Shown in pieces: positions 12,001 through 38,746 of a stretch of DNA of 64,000 nucleotides. The number at the start of each line of letters is the position of its first letter. Position 1 is the first letter of the stretch. Both the position numbers and the translations under genes were made by a program. The notes under the pieces are model-generated. The model was not told the origin of the DNA, made no database searches, and worked only from the letters and a program-made list of their open reading frames with translations. Origin of the DNA: Cenarchaeum sp. Lineage in GTDB: Archaea > Thermoproteota > Nitrososphaeria > Nitrososphaerales > Nitrosopumilaceae. The stretch spans positions 576,001-640,000 of the forward strand of contig OY843768.1 of the NCBI GenBank assembly GCA_963693095.2, read 5' to 3'.

Positions 12001-15000
12001 TCACGATGGCGCCGCAGGTCCGCTTTGTCGGCAAGGTCACAGCCGACGACGCCGACACGGCCGTTGACGAGTCCCTCGGCGTGCCGATGAGCGCAGTCTC
12101 GGGCAGGACCAACACGTGGACCACGACGTACACGGTAGAGACTGCCGAGCAGAACGCGGGACTGCGCGACGGGCCGTTCACGTTTGAGATACCGCACCCC
12201 GACGGCGTGTCTGTCGGCCCGACGATCACCGGCGCCTCTGGCCACGCCGCGCCGCTCATCGCGGCAAACAATGGCGTGCCGATAGGCCCTGTGGTGGACA
12301 CTGACCCGAGCAGCCCAACGTTCGAGCAGGTCCTCGACAGGCTTCACTCGGCGCCGACACCGCCGACGATAGACCGCACGGCGCCGACGATAGCGACAGT
12401 GTCGTTTGTTAGCGCAGATGCGGCCGCATCCAACGCGATCAGGGTAATGTTTGACGAGCGGATCAACCCCGCCACGCTCACCAGGGCAAGCCTGCCGGTG
12501 ACTGCCACCGACTCGTCAGGCAGTCCGCTGACCATCACGCTGCACACCGACGACGCGACCGAGGATGGCGACTCGGCGATACTCGTCTCCGCGGTCAACT
12601 CTGGCGTCGGCTCGGGCGCCTCCCAGTACACCGCCGTCACGATCGTCCTGGCCTCGGCGCTGACTGACGGCGCGACGTACACGGTCACGCCTGCGCCCAC
12701 AGTCACCGACCTGGCAGGCAACGCGCTGGCGCTCACCGGCACGGAGCCTGACACGCGCGCCGTCTCGGCGACGTACAGCGCCCCGCCGGCGGCCCTCACG
12801 TACACGGTGATGACGGCCTCGCCGACGCAGACGACAGTCACGTTTGGCGCCGCGCTCCATGCGAGGATCACGACGTCGACTGATCTTGACGAGGCAAAGT
12901 GGATCGTCGAGGACATTGCCGGCGCGAGCCCCGCCACGACACCGTCGGCCGCCGATGACCGCGCCGTCACTGCCATCACCGTCACCACGGTGGGCGCATC
13001 ACCCGTACTGACGCTCACGCACGAGGCGCTCACCGAGACCTCGCGCGCCCTCGTCTCGTACCGGCCGTCCCTCGGCGACCCGCCGACGTTCGACGCGGCA
13101 GGCGCGCCGGTCACGAGCCAGCCCGGCGCCACCGCGGGCCATGACATCGTCGGCGCCACCGGCGCAGCCGTCTCGACTGACGCGGTCCACGCCACGGCAG
13201 GTGGCGCGCCGACTGTAAGGACGGTCTTTGAGTCATCTGCCACCACGCGCACGATCCTGCTCAGCGAGGAGGTGTCTGCCACGCCGACAGTCGAGATGCG
13301 CGCGACAGGCACGCCGACGTATGCGAGCGCCGCCGTGGAGGCCACCGCGGGCCGCGCGATACTCGTCGCCTCGACGCTCTCTGGCAGCGTCGACGTGAGG
13401 ATAGCGGGCATACACTCATCGACCGTGGAGGCCACCGGCGTGCCAGTCGCCACGGACCGCATAGACACCGACGTCTATATCGTGCCCGGCGACGCGACGG
13501 CTGCCACGGTGGTCGGCAGGGACGCCTCGCATGGCCTGCGCGACGCCTCGGGCCGCGCCATGGCGCCGCTCTCGGCCTCCTTTAACGTGCCGGCCGACGG
13601 CGAGCTCGTCCTGATCGCCGTGTCCCCGTCAGTCAGCGACAGGTCAGTGAGGCTCCTGTTCAGCGAGGCCATCGATCCGGCATCGGTCAGCGCCTCGGCC
13701 TTTGAGGTCACCGGCCCCTCGCCGTCCACAGCACCGCTGACGATAACGACTGCCACGCTCGATGCCGCGTTGTCAGTCGGCGCGCCTCGCAACGTGGTGA
13801 CGCTGGTCATAGCAGAGGACATATCCGCCGCGGGCCAGTACGTCGTGACGGCAAGGGCCGCCGGCGGAATCACGCAGCCTGACGCGGTGCCCGAAGGCGC
13901 ACTGGCAGCCGACTCGGTCTCCGTGTTCCGCGTGGCCGCCGCCGGCACCGCCACGCTCACGGCCGCCGCGCCGTCAGGCGCGCAGACAGTCGTCGCGACG
14001 CTCACGCCGGCGATCGACATGACCTCTGCAGGTCCGCAGGTCTTTAGGATAGTCGGGCCGTCAGGCGCGCAGCAGTTCCGCGCGATCGAGTCGACTACGG
14101 CGACGTCGGCCACTACGGTGAGCATATCGGTGCGGGCAGCACTGCCGGCAGGCACGTACACGCTGGAGACCATAGAGCCCCCGCGCGCGACTGGCCTGAC
14201 GCTCAACCTCGACAGGCTTGACGGCACGGCGGGAGCCGGCACGGCAGCAGACACAGTCGACGCGCCGATAACTGCGAGGATTGACGGCGCCGAGCTCGTC
14301 ATCCCGTCCGGAGCCACGTTCACGTTTGGCAGCGCCGCCGAGGCGGTCCTCCTGGAGCGCGCCGCACTCGACGCGGATGAGGCATACTCGGCGCCGGGCT
14401 CGTCGCCGACTGCAGCGGACACTGCGGCTGCTGCTGCAATCTCCGCGATCATCGAGTCTGACGCGGCAGCCAGGGCGCTTGGCGCACGCGGCGACGCGCT
14501 CTCCTCGGTACCGCTCATAGAGGCCGGCAGCGCGTCATCGGGCATATCGCTCTCGGCACCCGCATCGCTGCGCATAGACGGCGATGCGTCTGACACCGGC
14601 GCCATCCACGCGTTCTACCTCTCTGGCGCCGATAACGACGTCGTCAACGCCGTGCCCGAGTGCGCGGACAGCGTGACGCACACGACTGCGCCGACGCTTG
14701 GCGCCGGCGAGGACTGTTACGTCGAGGACGGCGCCGACGTCGTCATCTGGACGAGCCACATGACGCAGTTTGGCGTCGCGACTTCTGGCACGCCACTCAC
14801 GTTCGTTGCGTCAAGCACGTCGGCCACGCAGACCCTCGTCACGTTCAGCCTGCCGGTGTCCGGCACGACGGCGGCAGCCGAGTGGGCGGTAAACGGCGTG
14901 CAGGCCACGGGAGTCGCCTCTGCTGGCGCAAGCGCAGCAGCGCAGACGCTCGACGACGACTATACGCTCACGCTGACCCACGCAGACGCCGGCACGGCGG

Positions 15001-18000
15001 CAAGGGACTCGGTCACGTACACCAGGTCGGCCGGCCAGTCCTCACAGATCCTCTTATCGGGCACTGGAGACGACACGATGGAGCTCGCAGCGCCGGGAGA
15101 CACGGTTAGCGCAGATGCGCTTGGTGATGCGGCATCGCCGACGTTCACGGCAGAGTTCCTTGATGCCGACACGATCACGCTCTTGCCAAGCGAGGCTCTC
15201 GACGCTGACACCGTCACGGGAGCCAACTTTGGGCTCAGCGGCCCGGACGGCCCTGATGCGGGCAGCCTGCGCGACATTCTCGCACTCGACGCGACGACGC
15301 CTGTAGATTACACGGCCGGCACGACGACTATCGCGCTAAACCTCGACGAGTCGGCGATTGCAGACGGCCTCTATGTCATCAGGCCATCCACGTCAGTCAC
15401 CGACGTCAGGGGCAACGCGTACGTCAGCAGCGCCGGCTCGCTTGCCACAGGCCTCGTCTTTGCTGCCACTGACGCGACGGCGACATACGACCCAACGCTC
15501 GGCGACTTTGATGCGCGCGCGCAGAGCCTGGTGGTGACGCGCGTCACGTTTGGCGCGGCCCTGGCCGGCACGCTTGATGTCGGCAACTGGACCGTGACTG
15601 ATGATGACGCAGACGTGGCCATGATCACGCGCGTGGCACTGGGCTCGGCGGATGACGCGCGCGAGGCTACGCCTGACACGACGCACGCGATCGCGCAAGG
15701 CTCTGCGGCTCTCGCACTGTTCATCACGCACGAGGAGCTCGACTCGACAGCTGCCACGCCGAGAGTCGCCTACGCCGGAGGCGACCTGACTGCCGGCGGG
15801 CTCGACGTGGCCGACCGCGGAGTCGAGGCCGCCGACGGGATCGCCCCGTCCATCGAGTCGGCCATGTTCACCGATGCTGACATGCTCGACATCACGATCA
15901 GCGAGACGCTCCTCAACTCAAAGGCAGACGTGGACGGCTACACGTTTGGCGTGACGGTGCCAGACACCGACTCGGACGGCGTTCCTGAGGATGTCCAGCT
16001 GGACGGCACCAACCCCGTCGACTATGACGCGACGGCCAGCACGATCACGCTCACGCTCGCCGGTGATGCCACGTCGGCCATCGTGCACACCGTCACGCTG
16101 CCTGCCGCGCTAGTCGACAGGGCAGGCAACGCGTTTGCCTCGCCGGCCGAGGCGGACGCGACGTACACGCCGGATGTCGCGCCGGCGGCGACTGACGTGG
16201 AGTACACGGTTCTTGAGGGGACAACGTCCAACGCGAGGCCTGACCCGTACTCCTCGCACGCGCGCGCAGGCGACACGATCATGCTCTCGATCACGCTCGG
16301 CGGTGAGGCGAGCTCGGTTAGCGTGCTCTTTGTGGGCAAGACGGACGATCCGGACACGACGGCAGACGACGCCAACACGGTTGCCATGGCGCGCGTCGAG
16401 AGCACGAACGAGTGGCGCGCGATGTACGTCGTAGAGTCTACAGGCACCATCGACGGCGCGTTCACGTTTGACGCGACGGTGACGGCCGCCTCGGGCGCGA
16501 CGCGCCCTGTGGACGAGGCGACCCTGTCGGCGACGACGCCGCCGACGATCGACCGCGCCGCGCCGACGGCGACGGTGACTGCGACTGTGAGGCTCGCGGG
16601 CCAGGGCACTGATGCGGCATCGGGCACGATCGCCGGCATCGGCGACACTGTCCGCGTCAAAGTTGCGGCCAACGAGCCGCTCGTCACGGCACCCGGCGAC
16701 ATTGCGCTCTTTGGGACGTCGACTGCCGCCGACTCGGTGGACCCCGGCACGTCCAACGCGTACTCGTACGTGCGCACAATAGTCGCCTCGGAGGCCAACG
16801 GCCCACTCACGTTCAGCCTGACGATACGCGACAGGGCAGGCAACGAGGCAACGCTCACGCAGGCCGACGTGGAATCGAACGTGACAGTCGACTCTGACGC
16901 GCCGACGCTATCCTCGGCGGCCACGGCGACGACGGCCACGCTGACTGTCACGCTCTCAGAAGCCGTCACGGGAGCCGGCGTCACCACCGAGTGGTCTGCA
17001 GAGGACGGCGCGACGGAGGCTATGATCTCCGGCGTCGACGTCTCGGGCAGCACGGTGACACTCACTTACGCGACGATCGCCGACACGTCATTTGCGCCGA
17101 CAGTAGAGTACACGGGCACGGGCATAGTCGACGCTGCCCGCAACGCCATAACGCTTGACTCCGCGACGTCTGCGGCCACAGTGGCTGCGACTGACGCCCT
17201 AAGGCCGGAGATAGACACCTCCACGTTCACGGCGGCCGACAAGATATCGGTGACCTTTAGCGAGGCCGTGACGAGTGACCTGAGGACAGGGGCGGAGGGA
17301 TGGTCCGTGGTGGCCGGCTCCAGCCTCACGGTGAGCGACGTCATGTTTGCCTCCCCCACGTACACGCTCACGGTGTCCGACGTGGTGCCCGGCACAGAGT
17401 ACACGATCAACGCAGCAGACATGATCGACGACCTCGTCACGCCGACGGCAAACAGGGTTCTCTCCACCGAGTCTGACACTGCGACGTACACGGCGCCTGA
17501 CCCCTTCGCGGCCGCCACGAGAAGCCTCACGACGACGCTCGTCACGTTTGACGGCGGCGCGCTGGCCGGCACCCTCGACGTGGACGACTGGACGGTCACG
17601 GACAACGACACCGGCTCGGCTGACGCGGAGCTGGTCATATCGAGCGTGGCGACGGTGGCCGCCTCCGGCTCGGTGACGGCGACGCCCGAGACCTCGGCGG
17701 GGGCCGGTGATGCGGTAACACCGGCCATACCGTCGAGCCCTGCGGCCACGCAGCTCCTCATCACGCACGGGCCGCTCTCCTCGACGGCGGCCACGCCGCG
17801 CGTCGACTATGCCGGCGGCGACCTCAGGGAGGGCGGCGCCAGCGGCACCGGCGTCGCCGACGGCGGCGCCGACGCGGCCGACGGCGTGCCGCCGACGTTC
17901 ACGGTTCACGACGCGACAGAGGCCGAGGAGGGACTCGTCGGCGTCACGGACGAGGACGGCCGGGTGATGTACTCCGTCTACACGGCCCGCATGTCCGAGG

Positions 18001-27000: not shown

Positions 27001-30000
27001 TCTCGGGCAACTCTATCGTCATAACGTTCAGCGAGCCTGTCACCGGCGTGACGTCAATGGGCGTCACGGCGCCAAGTGCGTCCACGCCAACATCCATGAC
27101 CGCAGACTATGACGACGGCACGAGGACCGCGACGATAGACCTCACCGCGCCGATAGCAACAGGCACGTGGACAGTCAACATACCGATGACAGTCATTGAC
27201 GCGTCCAACAATGTGCGCGCCACTGCCAGCGTCACTGCCGATCGCGCGGCGGCTCCCACGGCGACAGTCGCCTACGAGGTGCAGGACCAGAGCACGGGAA
27301 CGGCGCGCGCCGCGCCGTACACAAACCACGCGCGCGAAGGTGACGTGATCAGGCTCTCGCTCACGCTCAGCGAGGCAGTCGACATGGCACCGACTGTCCT
27401 CTTTGTTGGCAAGACTGACAGTCCGGACACGACAGCAGATGACGCCAACACGGTAACCATGATGCAGGTCGGCAGCACGATGGAGTGGTACGCAGACTAT
27501 ATGGTCGAGACGGTGGCTGCCGCACCGGCCATAGACGGCCAGTTCACGTTCATCGCGACGCTCACGGGCAACATGGGCGCTATGGGTCCTGTGACGCAGG
27601 CCTCGACGTCGCCGCCGACAATAGACCGCGTGGCGCCGACGCTCAGCGCGGCGCAGACTGACGGCCTGCGCGAGGTCTCTGTGACGTTTAGCGAGAGCGT
27701 GTGGGGAACCACAAGTGCCTCCGAGTGGACAGTCGGCGGCACTGCTGCGGAGAGCATCACCACTGACGGCTCGGCGCAGACCGGCGACCTGAACCTCGTG
27801 CGGAGGGCAACTCTGGCCATCGGCCTCTCGCAGGCCGGCGAGCTCGCCGGCGGCGAGGCGAGGCCGGCAGTAGCCCTCATGGCACGCGCGTCCGGTGGCC
27901 TCGTAGATATCGCCGGCAACCCCGTGGATGGCACACCGGTCACGGCCATAGACCGCATACGCCCGAGCCTCGTCTCCATGGAGTTCACGGCGCCCCGCAT
28001 GATCACAGTCACGCTGAGCGAGCCCATTGATGCTGACACGCTAGGCAGGAGCATCCCGCAGGGCAGCCTGAGCCCGCGCCTCGGGGCAATCACGGTCAAC
28101 TATGCGGCCGGCGCCGAGTCGCTCACGCTGATGACAGTCAATGGCGCAGTGGAGGGCACAAGCCACTCGCTCACGCTGCCCTCGCGCGTGACTGACGCGG
28201 CCAACCCTGCCGGCGTGGCGCGCAACAACATCCTGCCGACCTCCGTCTCAGACAGCCTGCCTAGCACGGTGGAGCCGACATACACGGCGCGCACGTACAA
28301 CGCCTCGCACGTCATCGTGACGTTCAGCGCGCCCGTTCAGGGCACGACGGCGGCGTCAGAGTGGACATTTGAAGTGCCGCCATCTGACCTGGTGACACCA
28401 GATGGCACAGGGCGGGCGGTAAACGCGGTGGCTGACAAGATTGATCCGGACATGACCGAGAGGCTTGATGACACGATACTGGCGTCATCTGCGTTCACCG
28501 GCCCATTCTATGTCGGCCACAAGGATCCAAGTGACGGCACATTCCCCGTCTGGGGACCGGGCGCCACGCCGGTCGTGAGGTTCACGATGCCGTCCAACGG
28601 CCTCGCCAGCGTTGTTCCGGAAGGTGACACGCCCATCACGCTAAAGACGGGTGCCGTGACTGCCGCTGACGCCATCGCGCCCACGGCAGCCTCGGCAGTC
28701 TTTGACACGCCGACTGAGGTCCACGTCACGTTCAGCGAGGACGTCCGCATCCAGAACCGCGACGGCCTGACAGTCTCCGGACTTGCCGTCACCGGCGCCA
28801 TGCTCGGCATGTCAGACAACATAGTGGTCCTCACCGTCAGTCCGCCGGCCGTCGAGGGCACGGCGCACACAGTCGGCATCGCGCGCGCAAGCGTGCAGGA
28901 TGGCGGCGGCAACACGCTTGCGGCAGACAGGACATTTAAGAACGTCATGTTCCAGGACGTTCTGGCGTTCACGGCATCCACGTTCAGGGCCGCCTCTGGC
29001 GAGCACGTCAGGGTCGTCCTCGATGACGACACGGTGGGAACGACGGTGGCCGGCGAGTGGTTCATCGGCGTTGCCGCCGACGGGACCGGCGGTGCGTCGG
29101 CGGCCTCGCTCTCGGCAGTCTGCACGGCCGGCGCAGGCCCCGCGGTCCAGGCGTCGATCAACATGGCCGACATTTGCCCCGGTGCTGCCGAGTTTGAGCC
29201 CAACACGATATACCTCGCATACGTCGCGCCGGACTCGGGCGCGACGCCCCGCGTGGCGTACAGGGCGCCGGCCGGAGACGGCGCGACGCCCATAGTCTCG
29301 ACGGTCAACATGCTCGGCATATCCGATCGCGCAGTGCTCGCCACAGACGGCCTGGCCCCGCTCTTTACGGCGGCGGCGACGACGAGCTCGAAAACCCTCA
29401 CGGTGACGTTTGACGAGGACGTCACGGCAGCGGCCGGAGGGCCTGACGCCTCGCGCTGGTACCACTATGACTCGGCCGTCGACCCGCCCACGCGCGCCGA
29501 GCTCAACATGGCAGTCTCGGCGATGACAATGTTCGACTCGGCAACGCTGGACGACCGCACGCTCACGCTCACGCTGCCAGAGGATTACGCGCCCTCAAGC
29601 GGCTGGGGACCCGGCGACACGGCCGCCGTCCCGCAGACGATAGGCTATGTCGTGCCGGCCGGGGAGACGGCGGACATACTCGATGCCTCACCGGCGGCCA
29701 ACGGCCTGGCAGACGGCACGGCGATCCGTGGCGTCACTGACGACGCGCCGCCAGAGATCGCCATGCTCACAGTCGTGGTCCTCGATGACAGCTCGCCAAG
29801 GGTGCCAAAGACCGACGGCTATGCGCACATCGCCGGCGCCGGTGATGCGATACGCGTCACGCTAGAGCTCTCCGAGCCGTCCTCGACCACCTCGCTGCCG
29901 AGAATCTCGGCGCTAAACGTGCAGGCCACGATGGCGCTGAGCAACGGCGACATGACGGCCACATCAGCAGACATCGCCGTGCCCGGCTCGTGGCCGAGCG

Positions 30001-32168
30001 ACGGGCCACTAGAGTTCACCATCACCGTCAATGACGCCGTGAACCCACCCAACGAGGCGTCGTTCACGCAGGAGGACCATGACAACCAGGAAGACGTTCA
30101 GCCGGTCCTCGTGGACGTCAACATGCCGAGCATCGAGGCCGTCCTGAGAACGTCGACTGACATGGTCCAGCTAGTCTTCTCCGAGGATGTCACCGGCACG
30201 GACAGCGTTTCGGTGAGCGCTGACGCAACGCCAGACGCGGCCACTGACCCGACAGCGCCCGTACTCATCAGGCCGTCGCCGGCGGGCAGCGACGCGACTG
30301 CGGCACTCGCACTCGTGCAGGGCACGTACATATTCACGATAGGGACCGGCGTCACCGACCTTGCCGGCAACGCGTTTGTGCCCCAAGAGGTCACGATCGG
30401 CGAGGGCGGGGAGATCGAGTCAGACACGCTCGTCGTGCCGGCCAGCGGCGCGCTGCCTGTCACGATCAGCGCGCCTGATGAGCGAGGACGGCCCATGGCG
30501 CCTGTCACGCTCCTCGTCGACGATCTCGTGGCAGACGACAGCACGTTTGATGGGGATATCACGATTCGCCTCGGGCGCTCCGAAGTCACTATATTCAGCG
30601 GGACCATGATCAACGACCTCGGCCCGACAGACGACGACGCGCCCACGCAGGGCACGCTCATCGCCGAGCTTGCGCGCCGCCTCGCCGACCTGACATACCA
30701 CGGCGCACTTGATGCTGACGACGAGGCCGCGCAGACGGCCAACGAGCGCGCCGCGCGGGCCATCACCTCCAGTGAGCCGGCAGTCCTCGTCACGCTAGGC
30801 AAGAGGTCTGATGCCGAGTCGGTCCTGTTCTCGAAACCAGTCCTGATCAGGCTTGATGGCGTCTCCGAGTCAGACCACATATTCTACATGGAGGCCGACC
30901 AGGATGTCGTGGACCGCATGCTCGTGACGGCGATACCGACGTGCCGTGATGCCGGATACGAGGACTTTGACCCCGAGACGGGACCGACACTGGGCAGCGC
31001 AATGACAGAGGATGATGCGCGCGAGTGCCACGTGCGCGACGGCGGGGACATTCTCATCTGGACGAACCACTTTACGCAGTTTGGCGGCAGCTTGCAGGGC
31101 ATACGCGTGGGCGGCGGCGGCGACGGGTGCGATGACTGCACGCCGCCAACGCTAGGAATAGACAGCACCGGAGTCCGCAGGGTCGCCGGCGGGTTCTCGT
31201 ACAATGCCGACACAATAGACGCCGAGTACTATTACACGCCGCTCCCGCTAATCACGGTAGAGACTGGCGAGGAGAACACGGCTGTCATCAAGGTCTTTGA
31301 GGACACCGGGCCGCAGAACGTGCGCCACGTCGGCCTGGGCTTTGGCCTCTCGCGCGGGCAGCACTTTGCCGAGTCGCAGGCCGAGATTAGGGTGCACCTG
31401 CCGTTTAGCGGCGCGCCGACCATCTCGCTTGACGATCCGGCCGGCGCCATCGACGTCGACTCGCTGCGTGCCATGACGGCAACGGGTGACTGCATGGCCG
31501 GATCGACTGCCGAGTGCCTCATCGTCACGATATACCACACGTTCCATGAGCCACTCGACTTTAACGTAGTCTCGACGATGGTCTGGGATGACAGGCGCAA
31601 CTCGTGGCAGAACTTTTTCAACCACGGCATCCACATCACCGGCGAGTCGCTAAACCCGCGCCACGGCATCGCAGTCAACGGCGGCGGGCTTGTCCTCTAC
31701 CCGCTCATCTCGGGCCACGTCGATGATGACGGTGACGGGATATACGATTATGACGCGCGCCACGTGACGTACATGCTAGACGAAGACCACCGCGTGTACC
31801 GCCTCACGCCTAACGGGACGTACCAGCTTGCGCGCAACCTCGCCTCGCTCCACCACGAGATTGACGACTCGATGTATGACGAGTCGCGCCTGACCTCGCA
31901 TGGGGCCGCGCGCGGAACGGTATTCTTTGATGAAATAATCGATAGGGAGCGCCGCATAGCCGCCGAGTACCTCAGGTCCATGGGAATGTCAATTGACATT
32001 CCCAGGGACGAGCCTGACGTGGTTCGCTCGCATGCGCCAGAAGATCGGGACGCGTACATACTCAAGCTGCAGGAGATGATAACGCGCGAGATAAACCTGG
32101 CCGAGCTTGCCCTGCGCGAGATGTATCCCGAGATCGCCGATTCGCTCTCGGAGAGCGACATGCCGTAG
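3..32168 (+). CDS. Giant repetitive cell-surface protein/adhesin (>10,700 aa, 5'-truncated): Ig-like beta-sandwich repeats, two ZU5/GAIN-like domains, distinct C-terminal domain
   Basis: The frame is open from position 3 (DAASGTIAGIDDIVRVNV, matching the internal copy at ~16609), so the true start lies upstream of the window. T/A/D/S/V-rich, with many recurring 'D..APT....ITLTFSE.....D.AGN' Ig-like motifs. Stop TAG at 32166-32168. Confidence 0.9.
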   Translation, partial: DAASGTIAGIDDIVRVNVAASETLVTAVGDIALFGTTTPADSVATGTSNAYSYVRTIAASDVGGALTFTLTIRDTAGNTATLTQANVASNVTVDSGAPTFSAELTSASTVKITFVEAVSGTTARGEWAVAGSFVASLSLPGGEANRLAIINAGDELYLNLASASAGTDLGDLTASGVTYTPRAGGALVDAARNAFVTDNGMVVATALADRAAPMFVRAAFATGGTGVTLTFTETLASLPSTLDFTLTTTVSGAPSTTLGTASAEGSMITIQVTSAITAADDGTVYTLTIGGTGAIEDTSGNEYAGAPVDVIYDSTPPTFTAGFTGARTIVLTSNEALAPATVVAANFGVTVPNAVSGGEPVSVALATADPAADPPVMPIAYDATALTVTLTLAADAPQGVVHTITPTDSLTNVAHVPYAAGGIMASRAPAAPTATAVAYTVFEGTTSTERTSPYASHARAGDTIRLSITLDGEASSVSVLFVGKTAADDAVPMDRVDATNEWRATYIVESAGSIDGPFTFVATAMTSSGATAPVDETTLSTPPPPTIDRAAPTFGAELTSADTVTITFSENVSGTTAPAEWTVAGSTVTAVTPSSPSSASEIVLTLSASRVGTALADPDGDGPLAEITPASVVYTRPGPYSATASNTIADAAAHDLAAAAMTAEATGVTDGAPPTARAAFLGSAIVILFSEPVNGVPDTLQVTQPGASAGPLGADHADGTDRASVAVSSPPAGDHSVALPTGIDDAADNALAAASVTATYAADTTAPTFRAELASASTVRIVFNEPVFGASAGSEWAVAGSGVSAVVPSSPFDATEIVLTLAVARTQTVLADTDGTGPLAEITAASVIYTRPSTGDDTLRNSAELHLATAAGGTTAATAIADKAPPTLIAERPTLDRIDNTHIVTFSEPVMLASGKSLPESADWTFSGRTSLGDIPVPFRAQTGEYFSSGVAFGYAIDLGTGDRATLVPQDTSRRDRDNGVPAFRNIAPATVMITFDAQADGRVGSIVDAEGNALAEGASTPVGDFTAPTFTARTLGLALTEVAFTEAVTGTARAADWSVSGTQATGVSLTSGGAGTATIGLDRQSVMYLVHADLASTDAEPTVSYARPSESGTGTLADPATIVMGTVSTPLEATAADGIAPTVRTSEFTGPNKLVITFSEHLAAFIPVNVDNDSGKYVVLRYGEAVPTDIGEYPVTLPDGESVPLTGTADYAEQATTSTVTLTLASPSATGTIHTVALPNNITDDARNQLAVDATASATYTASTQTDTMPPTFTARVFNTTHVVVKFDEPIQGTTAVADWAITLTGTTTPTLVGATQDPGAGNNAPRLKGSATILAAHEFDGLLYVGALKAAPFLALTDTPTVTYTQPATGGLTDVLPEGDTPNRVQTGSTVALAGDKTRPTVTSAAFTAEHTITATFSMDVTFVTGVDNYASDDAWTVTSPRGSLAVESAERTSSDTYTLTLDDDTDTIPGRAYMVTPDENVLDFYGNSALRVSGGDTGPLMSYPVQAYDGPLDARTQTSTTTLITFDGGSLTGTLAVADWAVAEAAPETAASIAISSIATVTADGMGQVTATPVDGSTPAVTHVLGSTPTVTSLLITHAELSNTASTPIVTYTRPASDGLMAGTTAVPTGPVDAADGAPPALADSGSLFMLRADRHTAQSQYYTQNPAGAGHNAWVIIKPTEPLHAGGSPIEFIGANPTDDSYTPSAAAADIAFFPGTSSPAGALVAGKAQSTQVYNYSYAVTASSPEGAIPFTLTVRDGAGNTATFTQADLTDDSSDTGSGALIAGGGYRVSVDRTAPTVDSSAFTAPNELTITFDEHLVALAAPASAGAIRDVAGVPTDVARYPTTTPDGTVTLTSAVYAEQATTSTITLTLASAAAAGTAHTVTLPVVGVDPNTLTALADDAKNLLAATTASATRQASDTTAPVASSIAFEVYDGTPDAGTLKTGDSRLLASDGDTIRLILTLSEDAAGTPTIEVHGRTAAGTAMGDNGDALATTWHHDLSVTSSWTEAAYTFTIAAADAATNSEPITRTAGLAAGVTVTVPTIDLTAPTATAVFSSTNTLVITVGEALLNTKAQVEGYAFTVSAASSTVSLATEDLMANPQVMPIVYDATASTITLTLASLAAAGVEHTVTLPAALTDRAGNAFASPAEVDATHMLPFFSAETRSDRTVLVTFDAALTGATAPSEWRVGTATPAGIAVGDGTALPVSQTLTADTKITLHLASGDRLAHTASTPTVSYTKPSGTGANVLREGTNEQGITGTALTATAADKAPPTASITSGELDELVITFSEPLDSATLPTTYEIEVESDGTLVDLHETTLPAYAAQATSSTVTITLADDATVEVELVVKIPNSITDANSNAYSGDSLSVTPKAAADTTRPTFTAETVRPGHVTIEFDEPVFGATATADWSVGGATPSGITATTVGGAPVRTSLIPRFVEGVQQPPPLVLGPMIVRIADPITSMTLQLSPTLGADATPSVAYTAPAPETLPLPPPSSPTRGLRDTALPTSNGMATATVMATDGIVGAIVPSATALTLSTLTAGDTPAIPPTLVGTGYKVTFTLTLDSTPASLPQIRLFTTGATATAMALDSGQGVPANTYTHTHTVVAADPDGLLSLWIDVGANTVVSHVATTVDQGTPTERIEYVTTGLPSQAPPPLAVTVDTTAPGVESIVLGSPPDDPTTTGTDESTTRSTITLTFNEFMNRPTLTRSSLPVTLSTGTASVIADDTNTAGIDEGVLIGQAPLRSLTDAPRTQVTITLDSPLVVSTEYTVTPATTVTDTVGNAYAGTAVSATHTVIQPLAYTARATSTTTTVITLAGALASSVTTSTDLDELEWHVEDAVRVAGEPSVSGSQRIVSLAAVTATGTAPTVTLTHAPLTVTQTPLITYVPGTEADLAGDDGAPLITTGVRAADGIAPTATAAFGTGLVAGDDTFSTVRLTFSEALSTITGATFAVNGPRVDSGNGPTVALRQDDPATTGVDESAANAVYAAGPPATVTLTLDSDVADGVYTVTITGVSDANSNAYAAGAISARSPVDFVPPRTDFHVSSSSFTSLDTLRLEFSGVLVNTDGALDGVTFAVSGPRVDSGDAGPAVTLLQESGSLSASAVSHTLITESLPGMAPTPVNSVVTLRLNADAADGEYTVAIAGARQAADATATPPRLERAYAAGDVAVTLGPLEPRAVELDIVVADTNDVERTGEATSLARAGDKIVITATLADMTASAPVIRAFGATVSEGEEETTTFGGSAVAMTAGATAREWTSTFTVSAADADTPVPAADGPFTFRMSADCTDATDTAADRDGCVDTDHDDAALLGAMLPTIDRTPPVIEDVTIATVNAASANALVVEFSEPIAAGTLSRDSLVVSTGTGASATRAALVADDADEAGDSALLHNGATVTIVLAAALADGTTYVITPTNALTDIAGNAYAASSYSAAYGSLGYAASLESRTTTVLTFGAALQSSLGVGSTLDASHWRVEDIAGSTPLALRIASVVPSTVGATTVMEVTFSDALRSSTVTASSITVADSDNNALTPTVSHTSASQVVRLTFDPALAAGTYTLGATTAVTTTSGEALGAAVSRAVAWDPASSPTVQFDDEGRPTPHPSRAAERSVISATLTRAGTSPQVTIVHSPLLNTDTPVISYSQCDAACLAGASGAPVTTGRMVAADGAPPEVVYAMRTSDGRIAIPFHEAVAGTSTATFTVNGPRASASDAGPAVPLHGTRATAVSYSDASRTITLTLVDPLPETGEYTVRMIGLTDTASPVNLYDAADTVSISPIDMRPPVESVAFTTPSSLLVTFGLGVAGVGDMVGAEVCGTAVEEGVSVFRCVLVPSDETEGTGLTGISVSYRRVTSSVVNGETVLAPHSSSTLAGATFELRGPRVDDSDPGPVIGISQAAYSGVPPPTVGIALGSPVSPGAYSLSIAGVTGITQLRHELVTSIGVVLEAPRRAATAIEYDVLKGAEGSKTIVTPGDGRLSQFVGAGDDIRLTVTLNEAVTMAPQVRFVGKVTADDADTAVDESLGVPMSAVSGRTNTWTTTYTVETAEQNAGLRDGPFTFEIPHPDGVSVGPTITGASGHAAPLIAANNGVPIGPVVDTDPSSPTFEQVLDRLHSAPTPPTIDRTAPTIATVSFVSADAAASNAIRVMFDERINPATLTRASLPVTATDSSGSPLTITLHTDDATEDGDSAILVSAVNSGVGSGASQYTAVTIVLASALTDGATYTVTPAPTVTDLAGNALALTGTEPDTRAVSATYSAPPAALTYTVMTASPTQTTVTFGAALHARITTSTDLDEAKWIVEDIAGASPATTPSAADDRAVTAITVTTVGASPVLTLTHEALTETSRALVSYRPSLGDPPTFDAAGAPVTSQPGATAGHDIVGATGAAVSTDAVHATAGGAPTVRTVFESSATTRTILLSEEVSATPTVEMRATGTPTYASAAVEATAGRAILVASTLSGSVDVRIAGIHSSTVEATGVPVATDRIDTDVYIVPGDATAATVVGRDASHGLRDASGRAMAPLSASFNVPADGELVLIAVSPSVSDRSVRLLFSEAIDPASVSASAFEVTGPSPSTAPLTITTATLDAALSVGAPRNVVTLVIAEDISAAGQYVVTARAAGGITQPDAVPEGALAADSVSVFRVAAAGTATLTAAAPSGAQTVVATLTPAIDMTSAGPQVFRIVGPSGAQQFRAIESTTATSATTVSISVRAALPAGTYTLETIEPPRATGLTLNLDRLDGTAGAGTAADTVDAPITARIDGAELVIPSGATFTFGSAAEAVLLERAALDADEAYSAPGSSPTAADTAAAAAISAIIESDAAARALGARGDALSSVPLIEAGSASSGISLSAPASLRIDGDASDTGAIHAFYLSGADNDVVNAVPECADSVTHTTAPTLGAGEDCYVEDGADVVIWTSHMTQFGVATSGTPLTFVASSTSATQTLVTFSLPVSGTTAAAEWAVNGVQATGVASAGASAAAQTLDDDYTLTLTHADAGTAARDSVTYTRSAGQSSQILLSGTGDDTMELAAPGDTVSADALGDAASPTFTAEFLDADTITLLPSEALDADTVTGANFGLSGPDGPDAGSLRDILALDATTPVDYTAGTTTIALNLDESAIADGLYVIRPSTSVTDVRGNAYVSSAGSLATGLVFAATDATATYDPTLGDFDARAQSLVVTRVTFGAALAGTLDVGNWTVTDDDADVAMITRVALGSADDAREATPDTTHAIAQGSAALALFITHEELDSTAATPRVAYAGGDLTAGGLDVADRGVEAADGIAPSIESAMFTDADMLDITISETLLNSKADVDGYTFGVTVPDTDSDGVPEDVQLDGTNPVDYDATASTITLTLAGDATSAIVHTVTLPAALVDRAGNAFASPAEADATYTPDVAPAATDVEYTVLEGTTSNARPDPYSSHARAGDTIMLSITLGGEASSVSVLFVGKTDDPDTTADDANTVAMARVESTNEWRAMYVVESTGTIDGAFTFDATVTAASGATRPVDEATLSATTPPTIDRAAPTATVTATVRLAGQGTDAASGTIAGIGDTVRVKVAANEPLVTAPGDIALFGTSTAADSVDPGTSNAYSYVRTIVASEANGPLTFSLTIRDRAGNEATLTQADVESNVTVDSDAPTLSSAATATTATLTVTLSEAVTGAGVTTEWSAEDGATEAMISGVDVSGSTVTLTYATIADTSFAPTVEYTGTGIVDAARNAITLDSATSAATVAATDALRPEIDTSTFTAADKISVTFSEAVTSDLRTGAEGWSVVAGSSLTVSDVMFASPTYTLTVSDVVPGTEYTINAADMIDDLVTPTANRVLSTESDTATYTAPDPFAAATRSLTTTLVTFDGGALAGTLDVDDWTVTDNDTGSADAELVISSVATVAASGSVTATPETSAGAGDAVTPAIPSSPAATQLLITHGPLSSTAATPRVDYAGGDLREGGASGTGVADGGADAADGVPPTFTVHDATEAEEGLVGVTDEDGRVMYSVYTARMSEAMDAADFASTPTGADGQWSVALGTATAAADMVHRAAAAGPLPDRVVVRVLASGLVAFPFPQGTPTLTYTASGDLALADAAAVAMASPTSAAVTPEPPAGPPFAAETRSATTTIVTFDGGDLGGALAVADWSVMESGGVGQRLVALVVETVTTDPTDSVRSNTVGTPHGAPVASVTVGASPAVTQVLITHPQISTAATPTVSYRGTGLTEGGIAVELGDAVAADGAPPTFEAELTSASSVRVIFSEPVDGATAVGEWAVDGSAPESLSLTEDGAAEAGTASLAGTEELFIALAAPRPGTDLGGLTAAGVTYTAPTQGAIEDDTDNDLGTANTALQATAVTDKAPPMIVSATFTDADTISVTFTEDVTNVTDIVGGDGWSVELGSTPVGLNSAARTADSTYTLELTAGVDTGMAHTIHAADAIADVSDAANPIDAGAMTTATYTAPAQAPTITGATLDTPTSITVTFSEMLDGETDADEWRVDNTAPASVTAGGSTAAAGTELTITAATMTLTLTLASAQDADATPIVTYTRPTGTSANSLDNPADTPLDSTLSPHVTAADMIDPSIDSARFTAANMIEVTFTEPVTEDTSTSAAGGTGWSLTDTVGSLAVQTVAHSGSTYTLTLDGNAVLARAYTIDAADGITDESPADNPVDDGERVGVTYTIPDTSVPTFSAELTSASTARIEFSEAVSGMTAASEWAFADSTVESLSLMADGTFTMGNLVLSGTELFATFDRARTRTSLDNGDGNDDGTAVEITPAVVTYTRPSTGDNTIQDGTNHLAAAGDSTDATAVTDKAPPTFTARTVTVTTIAVTFSEAIHNTSASADNPRADVLSVTNWDVDDGTPSSLVAANFTQAGAPTGPGNAAYTVFTLTFASAFGVDATPTVTYVRSGPGYLSDALTSHFRDHSDNNEISDDALAAVATDGIGPAIDTTAPTVSTDDVEFRRSADGMTYSIRIHFSEALDRDTVTAAGNFALTSNSNPVTVTPSYVAPASGQTTSHVDLALTTAPTMSARYSITIAPAVTDVAMNAVASASRSFTVDLDITPPTVSSAAFSGLSTIVLSVSEPLDTDTVTGLTVMGLGSATDLTVSTAANMGTSAPYTVHATTTDATANARYTLTVPTTVTDDSSTPTALAAPATFTVTAPATGGTIATPTVMSAQTTSRETTTVTFSGTLALGETSASDWALTPGSITVTSLRAGMQTEAASTPSATLDMGDVSITPTNMITLVHTTIGTGATPTVQYDGTGTITASGAPGVVPTTASPHTTATDGVAPLVMTATYAETNREITLTFSEGLDSDTVIAANFAVRGFTEPTTRSDTLAFNTAHGTDGVLYTAGSSDSETSMVSIRLATSDSYDDYKVVIAGSVMDTNTNAYVPIDNPDGSDATDDSDVDVEKVDETAPRATEITATVHDGTPGASTAKTGDHRTFAGIGDTVRLDITLDEDASGTPTIDVAGVTGASMDDMADGDATTWRYDLVVSATTVETSSLTFTINVTDGDNSGTITETTGHVGTLMFNRPTIDVTVPTATVTTSVRLEDAPSDSSTVTTAGIDDELRVTLTASEALDARVTDIDLFAAAVDADSVEGAGANAYAYVRTIVADDANGDIEFSVTFRDRAGNAAAAALTHTDATPRVTVDATPPTITSAATASTTTLTVTLSEAVTGAGTWSAVDGSTTAMISSAGVSGDTVTLTYTAIADTSFAPRVTYSGTGIVDAGRNALVSGSQQGATDGVSPTAEAAFSGNSIVITFSEPVTGVTSMDVTAPMASTSVSTTAHHTAGEATVRIDPPTPVAIGTWTVAIPATVTDVATNARATTSVTAERAEAPTATVAYEVQEQATMTAKASPHTNHARADDTIVLSLTLSESVDTAPTVLFVGKTTNPVTMTRAGTTNVWSAPYVVESTGSIDGTFTFAATLTGNTGSTRPVSADPATAPTIDRVEPTVSTTVFMGNSIVITFSEPVYNVPMTLDVTAPGETMDEDTTAHHTDGEATVRIDLTEPVDVGSWTVDIPAAVIDVANNARAAASASVMAMRTDAPTATVAYAVFESDGTTHRTAPHADHARVGDKIRLSLTLSEAVTTAPTVVFVGKVDDPSTPLVDESGSANMVNVAGTNEWRATYTVETDMQDTAELGSPFTFIATITGNTGSTGTATEALATPPTIDRVVPRITSAEFTEADTIVITLSEALAGTASTIESYTYGLTAPDNTNTPDDSDANPDVIVLATAAPSATPPVKPVTYNAGSRTITLTLAADATADVAYTVELPTELVDVAENAFTDRTEDATYDPPEASSLTFTVMTGSPLTEKTGANANLAGIGNTIRITLGLDAAVTAVPQITLDGRDTASVAMTAGAAMTWSHDYVVDATHDSATASDPLDISMLVTGNNGNVVRITATDGLASGTSVTLPLIDAERPTATALTAAVVLAGQSADAAAGTVAAIGDNVLVRLTADEELTTAATDIAFFGRTGVNANSVTPGASNLYTYARTILDTDDNGPLAFSLTMSDIAGNTATAALTQGDLTGTNVTVDSDAPTVTAMSHSDTARTITLTFSEGLLATTAVAANFEVRGFTESTQVRSPSALALNAAHGTAGVDYTAGTLASDASTVTIGLNADDSYDAYKVIIATAVTDTATNAYVPISNPDGDAATDDSDITVQKTDMTAPRATEISVTVHDGAATVAAKTGDAAGFAGIGDTVRLDITLNEDASGTPTIDVAGETGEMMNDRGDVDAKTWRYDLTVSATTTETSSLDFTITVTDGTTQGMITATTGHVGTLTFDRPAIDRTAPTASSLTTTVRLEGAAADSSTVTLAGIDDDVRINVTASEPLVTAVGDIALFGTLTAADSVDPGASNAYSYVRTIVDSDANGPLAFSLTMRDRAGNTATLTQADVDGTNVTVDADAPTIMSAVTASTTTLTVTLSEAVTGTSMGGHWSAIDTDPAVTAAISAADVSGSTVTLTYTAIEDTSFSPEVTYTAPSSGAPADAARNALGGSPVTAADGLSPTATAAFSGNSIVITFSEPVTGVTSMGVTAPSASTPTSMTADYDDGTRTATIDLTAPIATGTWTVNIPMTVIDASNNVRATASVTADRAAAPTATVAYEVQDQSTGTARAAPYTNHAREGDVIRLSLTLSEAVDMAPTVLFVGKTDSPDTTADDANTVTMMQVGSTMEWYADYMVETVAAAPAIDGQFTFIATLTGNMGAMGPVTQASTSPPTIDRVAPTLSAAQTDGLREVSVTFSESVWGTTSASEWTVGGTAAESITTDGSAQTGDLNLVRRATLAIGLSQAGELAGGEARPAVALMARASGGLVDIAGNPVDGTPVTAIDRIRPSLVSMEFTAPRMITVTLSEPIDADTLGRSIPQGSLSPRLGAITVNYAAGAESLTLMTVNGAVEGTSHSLTLPSRVTDAANPAGVARNNILPTSVSDSLPSTVEPTYTARTYNASHVIVTFSAPVQGTTAASEWTFEVPPSDLVTPDGTGRAVNAVADKIDPDMTERLDDTILASSAFTGPFYVGHKDPSDGTFPVWGPGATPVVRFTMPSNGLASVVPEGDTPITLKTGAVTAADAIAPTAASAVFDTPTEVHVTFSEDVRIQNRDGLTVSGLAVTGAMLGMSDNIVVLTVSPPAVEGTAHTVGIARASVQDGGGNTLAADRTFKNVMFQDVLAFTASTFRAASGEHVRVVLDDDTVGTTVAGEWFIGVAADGTGGASAASLSAVCTAGAGPAVQASINMADICPGAAEFEPNTIYLAYVAPDSGATPRVAYRAPAGDGATPIVSTVNMLGISDRAVLATDGLAPLFTAAATTSSKTLTVTFDEDVTAAAGGPDASRWYHYDSAVDPPTRAELNMAVSAMTMFDSATLDDRTLTLTLPEDYAPSSGWGPGDTAAVPQTIGYVVPAGETADILDASPAANGLADGTAIRGVTDDAPPEIAMLTVVVLDDSSPRVPKTDGYAHIAGAGDAIRVTLELSEPSSTTSLPRISALNVQATMALSNGDMTATSADIAVPGSWPSDGPLEFTITVNDAVNPPNEASFTQEDHDNQEDVQPVLVDVNMPSIEAVLRTSTDMVQLVFSEDVTGTDSVSVSADATPDAATDPTAPVLIRPSPAGSDATAALALVQGTYIFTIGTGVTDLAGNAFVPQEVTIGEGGEIESDTLVVPASGALPVTISAPDERGRPMAPVTLLVDDLVADDSTFDGDITIRLGRSEVTIFSGTMINDLGPTDDDAPTQGTLIAELARRLADLTYHGALDADDEAAQTANERAARAITSSEPAVLVTLGKRSDAESVLFSKPVLIRLDGVSESDHIFYMEADQDVVDRMLVTAIPTCRDAGYEDFDPETGPTLGSAMTEDDARECHVRDGGDILIWTNHFTQFGGSLQGIRVGGGGDGCDDCTPPTLGIDSTGVRRVAGGFSYNADTIDAEYYYTPLPLITVETGEENTAVIKVFEDTGPQNVRHVGLGFGLSRGQHFAESQAEIRVHLPFSGAPTISLDDPAGAIDVDSLRAMTATGDCMAGSTAECLIVTIYHTFHEPLDFNVVSTMVWDDRRNSWQNFFNHGIHITGESLNPRHGIAVNGGGLVLYPLISGHVDDDGDGIYDYDARHVTYMLDEDHRVYRLTPNGTYQLARNLASLHHEIDDSMYDESRLTSHGAARGTVFFDEIIDRERRIAAEYLRSMGMSIDIPRDEPDVVRSHAPEDRDAYILKLQEMITREINLAELALREMYPEIADSLSESDMP
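21858..27630 (+). repeat. Internal segmental duplication in the giant gene: ~21858-23810 versus ~25620-27630
   Basis: Co-linear, highly similar DNA and protein in both copies, e.g. TNAYVPI.NPDG..ATDDSD, FAGIGDTVRLDITL.EDASGTPTIDVAG, TTGHVGTL.F.RP. Confidence 0.9.
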
Positions 32169-32230
32169 GGGCAGCCTGCGCGCCATGGGCGGGTTAAGGT
32201 TTAATGCAGGTTGTTGAGATACTGCGTGTG

Positions 32231-34021
32231 TTGGCCTTTTGCACCAACTGTGGACGGGAATTAAAGGACGAACACAAGTTTTGTCCATCATGCGGCACGG
32301 CCGCGGCAGGGTCTGAACCAACTCAAACATCAGAACCAGAACACACGCAAGAACGTGCTGCGAATCCACCTGAACCGATCGCCGCCTCCGCCCCGGAGCA
32401 CATGCCCGACGTGGCGTCAGAATCCCCTGATGCGCTTCGCCAAGCTGGTTCTCCATACATGATAGATCGCAAAACGCTTTTTGAGGACGGTATGTTGGTA
32501 ATGACGTCTAATGACCTCATTCTTTATTCCAGTGACGAGCAAGACGAGCTCCTCCGCCTTCCTGTATCAAAAATTGACTCGTGTGGGTATAGCATGATGC
32601 GCCGTAAACTCGTTGTGAAACGACGAGTGCACAAAGACGATAATCTTCAGCAGATCATCATACAGAAAGATCGTGATATTGCAGATTTAGTCTCCAAAAA
32701 AGAAGCTCTGATAAAAAGCAAAAGGGAAACTCGCGTGAAACAAGAACGTAAAAAACTAGAGAATGAAATCAATGACACAAAGAAAGAGTTGGGTGGTCTT
32801 CAAAAAGAAAAAGATGCACTTGAAAAAGACCCTGCAACTATCCAGCAAGCGATGGAAGAATGTGCAGATACAGAAAATGTGTCGTTTAGATTAAGTGATG
32901 GATCGCGTGATGAGTATCGTATATGGGAACACGTGATCAATCGACGCATCCAGGGTGTTGAGCGTTTAAAGGTGGAGTCGCTTCCTTATGGGGCTGTTGT
33001 GCTCATTAACGGCTCACCAGTTGGAACAACGCCTATCACAGTGGACAAGCCTATTGTGGATGATGCCATACTGTCTGGCAAGTATGATGTGTCGATCTTG
33101 ATGGAAGGCCATGAGGCAGCACTTCACCGTGTGTCAGTTGGATGTGGGGGAGAGTCAACTATCCTACATGACAACATCCGGAAAATTGATGTCCCTGATG
33201 TGGATCTTGACACACAAGTGTCCAAGCTACGTGCTAACGCACCCGTACTGAGTATAGATCTTTCTCAATGTGGTGTAATGCGAGAAGTAGAGTGCAGCAA
33301 TGAAAAGCTGGTTTTAACATCTGATGCATTACTTGTTGTTTCAAAACTTGGAGACGTTCTCTATTATGAAATACCCTATAGAGCAATCGCTGATATCAGT
33401 TACGGAGGCAGGCTTTTTGGGCGACTTGGAACTAAACATATGCGCATCACTTATCGCGAATTGCCTTACCCAAATTTGAATTTGGAGTTGGTATTGGATG
33501 ATTGCGAGGGGACAATCTCTGAAGCTGAGTTAAAGCGTCGTGGTGAGAGTGTTGTTGAGCTTGCGCGTGCTCATCGAGACGATGCTGAAACTAAGACTAG
33601 ATCACGCATACGACGTCCATCTCAACATTATGTGATTACTGAACAGGATTTAAACAATGACTTTCGACGATTCAGCCCAATAGATTTTGAAACTGTTATT
33701 ATGAAGCTATTTGAAAAAATGGGATACAATGCAACGGTGGGTCCTGGAAGGAGCGACTTTGGAGCTGATGTGATCGCACGTAGTGGTGGCGAAACACTGG
33801 TGATTCAAGTAAAGCACTGGGATGGAAAAGTTGGCGGCCCTGACGTGCATAAAACTCTGGGTTGCATGCCAACATTTTCTGCCCAACGTGCTATTGTGGT
33901 CACAACATCAGATTTTACAAATCAGGCCTATGAGATACAAAACCTTGGATCTCCAGTAGAACTCTGGAATGGTGAAAAGCTCAAAGACAAAATTCGTCAG
34001 TATATGTTGGGGCAGGAATAG
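32231..34021 (+). CDS. Mrr-family (type IV-like) restriction endonuclease fused to N-terminal Zn ribbon, PH-like segments, coiled coil and PEGA-like domain
   Basis: N-terminal FCTNCG...FCPSCG. PEGA-like 'VESLPYGAVVLINGSPVGTTPI'. C-terminal 'FETVIMKLFEKMGY...DFGADVIA...IQVKHW...VVTTSDFT.QA' (Mrr_cat D...QxK). A TTG start at 32231 fits the TTTAAT box at ~32200. AT-richer than the flanks. Confidence 0.8.
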   Translation: MAFCTNCGRELKDEHKFCPSCGTAAAGSEPTQTSEPEHTQERAANPPEPIAASAPEHMPDVASESPDALRQAGSPYMIDRKTLFEDGMLVMTSNDLILYSSDEQDELLRLPVSKIDSCGYSMMRRKLVVKRRVHKDDNLQQIIIQKDRDIADLVSKKEALIKSKRETRVKQERKKLENEINDTKKELGGLQKEKDALEKDPATIQQAMEECADTENVSFRLSDGSRDEYRIWEHVINRRIQGVERLKVESLPYGAVVLINGSPVGTTPITVDKPIVDDAILSGKYDVSILMEGHEAALHRVSVGCGGESTILHDNIRKIDVPDVDLDTQVSKLRANAPVLSIDLSQCGVMREVECSNEKLVLTSDALLVVSKLGDVLYYEIPYRAIADISYGGRLFGRLGTKHMRITYRELPYPNLNLELVLDDCEGTISEAELKRRGESVVELARAHRDDAETKTRSRIRRPSQHYVITEQDLNNDFRRFSPIDFETVIMKLFEKMGYNATVGPGRSDFGADVIARSGGETLVIQVKHWDGKVGGPDVHKTLGCMPTFSAQRAIVVTTSDFTNQAYEIQNLGSPVELWNGEKLKDKIRQYMLGQE

Positions 34022-38695: not shown

Positions 38696-38746
38696 GTGAT
38701 CCTACGATGCGCCAAAATGCATCCAATGGGAGTGTTGAGTTCCGTC

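Follow-up and report, generated by a model that had tools for sequence, protein, structure and literature searches.

Two GAIN/ZU5-like domains with a conserved H-X-T motif as candidate self-cleaving modules in a giant Ig-repeat surface protein of Cenarchaeum

Does a giant surface protein of a Cenarchaeum species cut itself at defined places? The question is raised by a 64,000-nucleotide stretch of the Cenarchaeum sp. assembly GCA_963693095.2 (contig OY843768.1, positions 576,001 to 640,000 of the forward strand), hereafter the window, which holds the 3' part of a giant gene whose product consists mainly of immunoglobulin (Ig)-like repeats. Two non-Ig domains of about 200 aa stand out in it (window ~14151-14798 and ~30432-31109), both ending in W-T-x-H-[M/F]-T-Q-F-G. 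Judging from sequence comparison and structure prediction, we consider that both copies are probably self-cleaving modules of the GAIN-B/ZU5 type and of the kind recently named MAIN (Microbial Autoproteolysis INducing). As of May 2026, GAIN-like self-cleavage in microbes is no longer new as a concept; the new points are the W-T-x-H-F-T domain, which is an unannotated sequence family, its second, internal copy and the size of the protein.

Are the two domains really copies of each other? The preliminary description of this DNA had reported a domain present exactly twice, with shared strings (LSAPASLRIDG/FSKPVLIRLDG, AVPEC/AIPTC, PTLG and IWTSHMTQFG/IWTNHFTQFG) and His codons at 14757 and 31068; all of these strings are found in the translation, and both codons start there. 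Compared by BLASTP, the copies yield 69.3 bits, with 33% identity over 203 columns, and since the E value is 2e-18 across about 200 aa, their likeness is not due to chance. The short motif is by itself weak evidence, because 33 of 1,000 residue shuffles of the open reading frame reach two or more matches to the 7-residue motif. The count of two holds for the 14,652-aa frame of the window and for the upstream part of the gene: the frame contains no third copy, and none of the ten matches in the genome falls within C1:515953-564450 (C1 being the contig of the window). The features are listed below; the E values of the hidden Markov model (HMM) for the two window copies are partly circular, because both are rows of the query alignment (A2).

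3 to 32168, forward strand: giant surface-protein gene, 3' two thirds, within a single open frame of 14,652 aa.
14151 to 14798, forward strand: internal GAIN/ZU5-like copy (HMM match C1:590151-590783, E = 1.9e-59; translation).
14661 to 14663 and 14715 to 14717, forward strand: codons of the two family-invariant Cys residues of the internal copy (invariant columns of alignment A3).
14751 to 14774, forward strand: motif T-S-H-M-T-Q-F-G of the internal copy, with the His codon starting at 14757.
30432 to 31109, forward strand: C-terminal GAIN/ZU5-like copy (HMM match C1:606432-607097, E = 4.6e-96; AlphaFold; Foldseek).
30942 to 30944 (C151) and 31026 to 31028 (C179), forward strand: codons of the two family-invariant Cys residues of the C-terminal copy (alignment A3).
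31062 to 31085, forward strand: motif T-N-H-F-T-Q-F-G of the C-terminal copy, with the His codon starting at 31068.
31086 to 31127, forward strand: Gly-rich linker GSLQGIRVGGGGDG (predicted local distance difference test score, pLDDT, below 50 in a 602-aa model).
31128 to 32165, forward strand: conserved C-terminal module, which starts with C-D-D-C-T-P-P-T-L-G and ends nine giant frames of the genome.

If the motif were a catalytic site, it should be kept in the relatives of the domain. A single-sequence search of 1.84 billion representative proteins returned only ten, one of which (P0013) was a false match to a repeat protein; the nine true matches all keep W-T-N-H-[FL]-T-x-F-G. P0013 was dropped, and alignment A1 was built without the long sequences P0005, P0008, P0009 and P0010, the last two being this genome's own proteins. 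Using a profile of the ten own copies, the domain core (its C-terminal ~100 aa) was found in 34 of the 121 family genomes sampled, covering 13 of 27 genera; the frames concerned measure roughly 100 to 9,000 aa, and two family genomes of 3.7 to 3.9 Mb hold at least 25 copies each. Our motif census covers all 114 places among the matches listed by this search, and 111 of these carry T-x-H-hydrophobic-[T/S]-x-[F/W/V/Y]. Position P1', just after the predicted cut, is Thr in 101 and Ser in 10, whereas P1, just before it, is F in 53, L in 51, A in 4, M in 2 and W in 1. This free exchange of Thr and Ser, together with a P1 that need merely be hydrophobic, is what a catalytic H-X-(S/T) site predicts. 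The three copies lacking the motif are a pseudogene with in-frame stops (L037), the weakest match (L133) and L081 (A-Y-H-L-A), one of 25 listed paralogues in genome G105. In the 38-row alignment A3, which left out the pseudogene counted in the census, only a Gly, two Cys, the Thr at P4 and the His at P2 are invariant, the P1' Thr and the next Phe being conserved at or above 90%; the residue after the P1' Thr varies across the family (Q, R, L, P, K, S, V, G, T, D, H, E or A). A role of the motif as an N-glycosylation sequon was ruled out, as no N-x-S/T lies in register.

The domain is not restricted to this archaeal family. When one genome per species was scanned with a pattern, relatives were identified in Syntrophomonas, Pelotomaculum, Cohnella, an Actinomycetes metagenome-assembled genome (MAG), a Gammaproteobacteria MAG, three Patescibacteria, an uncultured bacterium and a Methanosarcinales MAG. 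Their profile (A4), meant for sequences outside the archaeal family only and built without L141 and L136-L140, aligns with the archaeal profile over 129 columns in hhalign (prob 99.9, E = 2e-34), stretching well past the motif. Taken singly against this independent bacterial profile, the internal copy gives a prob of 97.2 (E = 3e-11) and the C-terminal copy one of 96.9 (E = 1.9e-10). The His and the Thr/Ser are kept in 10 of 10 bacterial or Methanosarcinales relatives, rows that were chosen by a pattern containing the motif. The His and Thr singled out in the preliminary description are thus conserved in homologs both within the archaeal family and outside it. In the outside relatives, the domain is preceded by cadherin-like, Ig-like, fn3 or phosphoesterase passengers and followed by a Gly/Ser linker leading to three SLH domains, to an LAATG-helix-Arg tail or to a C-terminal membrane helix; in the Actinomycetes relative, the sortase-like LAATG tail lies within ~10 residues of the motif.

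Is the presence of two modules in one protein peculiar to this archaeon? In Syntrophomonas-type SLH proteins (Bacillota), the W-T-x-H-F-T domain is located 144 to 148 aa upstream of a second domain ending in H-F-S-x-F-A-V-L, which has a sub-threshold match to Pfam ZU5 (E = 0.0097). The pairing occurs in 6 of the 11 proteins found with the second domain (P0020 and P0022-P0026 are listed) and in L142 (Syntrophomonas MAG, 3-1508). These Bacillota SLH proteins thus carry two putative self-cleaving modules side by side. This archaeon is not alone in having a pair of such modules in one protein, and the unusual feature is a second copy lying 5,437 aa inside the passenger. As a separate observation, P0019 is 99% identical to L142 in this region and has Tyr in place of the His of the second motif.

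What fold does the domain adopt? AlphaFold, supplied with 38 sequences, models the C-terminal copy as a 13-strand β-sandwich with one helix (residues 78 to 93), at a pLDDT of 92.7 and a predicted TM score of 0.89. In this model, H193-F194|T195 coincides with the gap that separates the final two strands (E186-194 and E196-200). A Foldseek search of the PDB places GAIN or ZU5 chains at all of ranks 1 to 8, the best E value being 0.02. These comprise CD97 (8ikj, E = 0.02, prob 0.84; 9mqr_A, E = 0.042, prob 0.89; query TM 0.38 to 0.39), ankyrin ZU5A-ZU5B, the GAIN domain of BAI3 (twice), ankyrin-B and ankyrin-G complexes and ZU5-ANK, with the ankyrin ZU5 matches at ranks 3, 5, 7 and 8 (E = 0.23 to 0.34). 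The nearest named cluster in the protein-language-model Atlas is ZU5 as well (score 0.87), which we treat as a lead only. Foldseek was also run with the 602-aa model (mean pLDDT 56.3, C-terminal module unfolded); the matches were mostly antibody Fab chains, with a single ZU5 row (an ankyrin-G chain, rank 33), and were set aside as noise.

GAIN-type self-cleavage was long regarded as a trait of eukaryotic receptors. Subdomain B of GAIN is described as having 12 to 14 strands, with an HL|T/S triad before the last one (PMC11697300). According to the main text of a recent preprint (Brogan and Rudner, bioRxiv 10.64898/2026.05.12.724683, May 2026), this type of cleavage extends to microbes, mainly in wall-anchored proteins of Bacillota: MAIN domains of bacteria and archaea have a predicted GAIN-B fold and cleave themselves at H-X-(S/T). 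In Bacillus subtilis YfkN, the cut between Phe and Ser of H-F-S was located by Edman degradation, an S-to-A substitution abolishes cleavage, S-to-T restores it, and the fragments stay together. The same text describes a set built by PSI-BLAST from the YfkN domain in which virtually all proteins share one arrangement (signal peptide, passenger, MAIN, anchor), and it proposes release by shear force. It makes no mention of tandem or double MAIN, giant proteins, Nitrosopumilus or Thaumarchaeota, and its supplementary tables may list the family. In a literature search, none of the 11 papers containing three of the six terms linked Nitrosopumilus or Thaumarchaeota to GAIN, MAIN, ZU5 or autoproteolysis.

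The Cenarchaeum domain resembles MAIN in the conserved H-X-(S/T) with a hydrophobic X at a β-turn, in its occurrence, across bacteria and archaea, in very large proteins ordered as signal peptide, adhesion passenger, domain and anchor, and, as far as the weak Foldseek matches indicate, in a predicted GAIN-B-like β-sandwich. That order is seen for the C-terminal copy, provided that what follows it acts as an anchor, and for the bacterial relatives, and not for the internal copy, which has 5,437 aa of passenger behind it instead of an anchor module, the next repeat domain starting ~8 aa past the motif. The differences are that the W-T-x-H-F-T-x-F-G family, with its one Cys pair, may be distinct in sequence from the YfkN-type domain, that the presumed anchor is a module of ~345 aa rather than a sortase signal, SLH domains or a wall-binding domain, and that a second copy lies so far inside the passenger. 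With the GAIN/GPS of adhesion GPCRs (G protein-coupled receptors) and polycystin-1, the domain shares the 13 strands of its model, the predicted H-F|T before the last strand and a large adhesive ectodomain on the N-terminal side. Unlike GAIN, it has no helical subdomain A (2 to 6 helices in GAIN), having one helix and an N-terminal part made of β-strands, and P4 is Thr instead of Cys, the conserved Cys residues forming a single pair. Nor does a seven-transmembrane or other membrane domain follow, and therefore no tethered-agonist signaling is expected.

Among the ZU5 autopeptidases (PIDD, with two H-F|S sites, the FIIND of NLRP1 and CARD8, and Nup98), H-F-[S/T] likewise lies at the end of a β-sandwich, and PIDD provides a precedent for two self-cleavage sites per chain. 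ZU5, GPS and Nup98 were united as one autopeptidase superfamily by Zhang et al. 2012 (PMC3482391), who define the ZU5 superfamily by a C-x-H motif and describe ZU5 domains in bacterial polymorphic toxins as well as in large surface proteins that carry adhesion modules. In contrast, the domain studied here has T-x-H, does not match PF00791, and has its two sites 5,437 aa apart and outside the cell. The SEA-type site is G|S-V-V-V in an α/β fold; no such site was found in either copy, and our model is almost all β, with one helix. SEA/SEAL domains (mucins, clostridial RsgI anti-sigma factors) nevertheless offer a parallel, being cut in a loop between strands, with fragments that are held by the sheet and separated by force, as related in the MAIN preprint (bioRxiv 10.64898/2026.05.12.724683).

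How would such a domain cut itself? In the course that we infer, the invariant His at P2 would activate the invariant Thr/Ser at P1' for an attack on the peptide bond that links it to the hydrophobic P1 residue (Phe in one copy, Met in the other) and that lies in the tight turn joining the final two strands. The bond would then undergo an N-to-O acyl shift, and hydrolysis would complete the cut. The predicted scissile bonds are Met|Thr in the internal copy (between 14762 and 14763) and Phe|Thr in the C-terminal copy (between 31073 and 31074), and the Cys pair of the internal copy would form a disulfide. The short last strand (TQFG...) would keep its hydrogen bonds in the sandwich, so that the pieces would stay joined until pulled apart. 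The internal copy would provide one more point of breakage, 5,437 aa nearer to the N terminus, and the mature protein would consist of three non-covalently joined pieces of ~24,900 (or 8,759), 5,437 and 364 aa.

The size of the first piece depends on the true length of the gene. The source genome (2.0 Mb, 60% G+C, two contigs) contains an archaeal 16S rRNA gene and archaeal amoA. On its contig C1, the 14,652-aa frame begins 11.8 kb before the window, at G000:C1:564210, and shares 240 nucleotides, in a different reading frame, with the open frame that precedes it (16,166 aa, C1:515953-564450) and that starts with a signal-peptide-like sequence. The short-read contigs of four of four public runs, which belong to one study and possibly to the source sample, have a single additional base at C1:564254 (11.7 kb before the first position of the window), at full depth, and the frame break in the assembly is therefore probably an error. 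Among the data sets listed for the stretch searched, none was of RNA. With the break removed, the giant gene is probably one frame of ~30,699 aa (92 kb, ~4.6% of the genome). The N-terminal piece thus amounts to 8,759 aa if the assembled frame is read from its first ATG and to ~24,898 aa if the upstream frame belongs to the same gene. The preliminary description was correct in its 5,437- and 364-aa pieces, whereas its figure of more than 4,900 aa for the first piece merely reflected the limit of the window. Within the passenger, Pfam recognizes Big_5 in 6 plus 4 stretches, along with weak CopC-like and SWM_repeat matches. The whole 14,652-aa frame has 16 Cys residues, 8 of them within the two domain copies and the C-terminal module.

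The preliminary description saw a candidate release system for the giant adhesin; is the domain a special device of this one protein? Ten copies are present in the genome, in frames of 14,652 (twice), 16,125, 24,633, 6,067, 4,447, 3,498, 3,064, 3,062 and 1,061 aa, and all ten keep W-T-x-H-[FLM]-T-x-[FV]-G. Eight of them lie 300 to 347 aa before the frame end in eight giant open frames; behind each come a linker rich in Gly, the string C-[DS]-D-C-T-[PS]-P-T-L-G and a C-terminal module that is strongly conserved. The nine genes with this module comprise eleven open frames, 103,931 aa in all, or 15.6% of the 2.0-Mb genome. Hence the C-terminal copy is a standard module of eight giant frames and of many other genomes, and only the internal copy is unusual. 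In this lineage, the C-terminal copy would probably be the place at which a huge Ig-repeat passenger regularly breaks from the ~345-aa module.

The two internal copies, in the window gene and in the 24,633-aa frame, both lie within a 2,400-aa block that is 79% identical between the two giants. The copies themselves are 82% identical, and because this does not differ from the 80% of their flanks, their identity is uninformative on selection. No internal-type copy was found in four of four congeners, one of which (a complete genome) has a single homologue frame of 25,697 aa. Gene fusion or module capture fits this absence; the fusion of two ancestral giant genes, which the preliminary description had suggested, also fits the position of the domain near the C terminus elsewhere, which is no proof of it. 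As to the second giant, its 24,633-aa frame (G000:C1:1247713-1324529, reverse strand) has a signal-peptide-like start and overlaps, as in the window gene, a further frame, of 1,061 aa, that carries a C-terminal domain copy and the anchor module; the two look like one split gene of ~25,600 aa.

The module of ~345 aa that follows the C-terminal copy is probably a cell-surface anchor, as suggested by its position. It contains 4 Cys residues and yielded no Pfam, NCBIfam or Atlas lead (best Atlas score 0.77); no membrane-spanning segment was found in the last 364 aa, where the 19-residue hydropathy peaks at 1.18. Domain and module are separable, because an 11,156-aa frame (L024, G000:C1:82000-84200) ends in the module (SSCDDCTPPTLG...), directly after an Ig-like repeat, without a GAIN-like domain before it. 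In other genera, the linker site is occupied by G/S/T/P-rich linkers, and the first ~190 aa of the module also occur in small proteins; the C-terminal regions differ there, some ending in a short ...LLSWL.. helix. Examples of this conserved C-terminal helix, behind Pro/Glu-rich repeats, are ...LLEQLLSWLRLD, ...FEQIISWLFG and ...GLLRWLGLA (L041, L046, L032, L042 and L051). This helix may represent a different anchoring signal.

Several points weigh against a self-cleaving GAIN-type module. Ankyrin ZU5, which is among the top fold matches, does not cleave, and neither do some GAIN domains. The Foldseek scores are weak, with no PDB match at E = 1e-3, a query-normalized TM of at most 0.39 and a probability of just 0.06 to 0.07 for the BAI3 rows. 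Because of these scores, the GAIN/ZU5 fold expected by the preliminary description is supported by the eight best neighbors and not proven. The Pfam GPS, GAIN and ZU5 models do not match the domain (PF00791 matched neither copy nor any of 8 relatives, with Pfam scanned at E up to 1), and the Pfam and NCBIfam scans of both copies and relatives gave no named domain above threshold. Sequence and profile searches of the PDB (A2, A3, A4 and the Syntrophomonas second domain) returned nothing significant, the best rows being a Bap-like chain (E = 0.021) and ice-binding proteins (E > 0.1). In the A4 rows, selected as described above, motif conservation is there partly by construction. The anchor role of the C-terminal module is deduced from position, with no membrane helix to support it. 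Finally, hhalign comparisons of A3/A4 with the HFSxFAVL domain, entered singly or as the 4-row A5, were not significant (prob 1.5 and 17.7), each pairing the same 'EIG..F..PV.I.L' element. Because this comparison was not significant, the W-T-x-H-F-T family may be a sister lineage of the YfkN-type MAIN.

One alternative is that the domain is a structural β-sandwich that does not cleave, a stalk or hinge comparable to the ZU5 of ankyrin or UNC5 or to an uncleaved GAIN, in which the motif is kept for folding or partner binding. The ankyrin ZU5 neighbors at ranks 3, 5, 7 and 8 and the weakness of all fold scores speak for it, and the invariant Cys pair and Gly are plausibly structural. However, the retained residues are exactly the catalytic triad positions of GPS and MAIN sites, and P1' is restricted to Thr or Ser (101 and 10 of the 114 listed) while P1 may be any of several hydrophobic residues. 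In the model, moreover, the motif occupies the last hairpin, as in GAIN, and the copies without it comprise a pseudogene containing stops, a weak match and one of 25 listed paralogues. We thus regard a non-cleaving role as rather unlikely, and self-cleavage as the better account of the pattern of conservation.

Much less probable is that the motif serves as the recognition site of a separate protease or sorting enzyme acting at the junction of passenger and anchor. Archaea and bacteria do have dedicated sorting enzymes, the motif lies at this junction with a flexible Gly/Ser-rich linker behind it, and one Actinomycetes relative has the sortase-like LAATG within ~10 residues. Yet the motif is buried in a confidently modeled strand pair (pLDDT > 90) and not in a tail, and no protease gene adjoins the giant gene. 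Furthermore, no single partner enzyme is expected for a family that occurs in both bacteria and archaea and is combined with at least four anchor types. An autocatalytic cross-link within the chain that strengthens the stalk (a Thr-Gln ester, or an isopeptide as in the Ig domains of Gram-positive adhesins) is the least credible of the alternatives: His-assisted Thr chemistry is known in adhesin domains and Gln follows Thr in both window copies, but that Gln is not conserved across the family and the 38-row alignment has no invariant Gln, Asn, Lys, Asp or Glu column. We therefore retain self-cleavage at H-X-T as the favored explanation for both copies.

Other genes were noted in the window beyond the giant gene. 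Directly downstream (32204-34021, forward strand), a 605-aa protein combines a zinc ribbon, PEGA and an Mrr-type restriction endonuclease domain. Further on, an EcoRV-like restriction endonuclease (38696-39412, forward strand) adjoins a D12-class N6-adenine methyltransferase (39415-40293, reverse strand), the two likely forming a type II restriction-modification pair. A 1,098-aa protein with lamin-tail and MG2 (α2-macroglobulin) domains is encoded at 44317-47613 on the reverse strand.

What would self-cleavage mean for the organism? Ammonia-oxidizing archaea have only an S-layer as envelope, and Cenarchaeum is a genus known as a sponge symbiont. Our analysis suggests that the logic of the wall-anchored bacterial proteins extends to these archaea, through a family unnamed in databases that marks the junction of passenger and presumed anchor in nine giant genes. 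The additional module inside the passenger suggests that the protein is made to come apart at two set points. We tentatively entertain the wider possibility that a protein of ~30,700 aa, cut at two GAIN-like modules into pieces that hold together solely through an inserted β-strand, carries two mechanical fuses in series for the staged, force-dependent shedding of an adhesin from a wall-less cell, and that W-T-x-H-F-T represents a second, unannotated lineage of GAIN-like autoproteolytic domains across Bacteria and Archaea, which some Bacillota proteins combine with a ZU5-like H-F-S domain. The two-stage shedding put forward in the preliminary description is, in this respect, something that we only infer. 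Concrete objects for experiments are both domains, each of ~200 aa, and their predicted neo-N-termini, TQFGGSL and TQFGVAT. If giant adhesins are shed in a regulated way, this could matter for the attachment of the symbiont to the tissue of its host and for its detachment from it.

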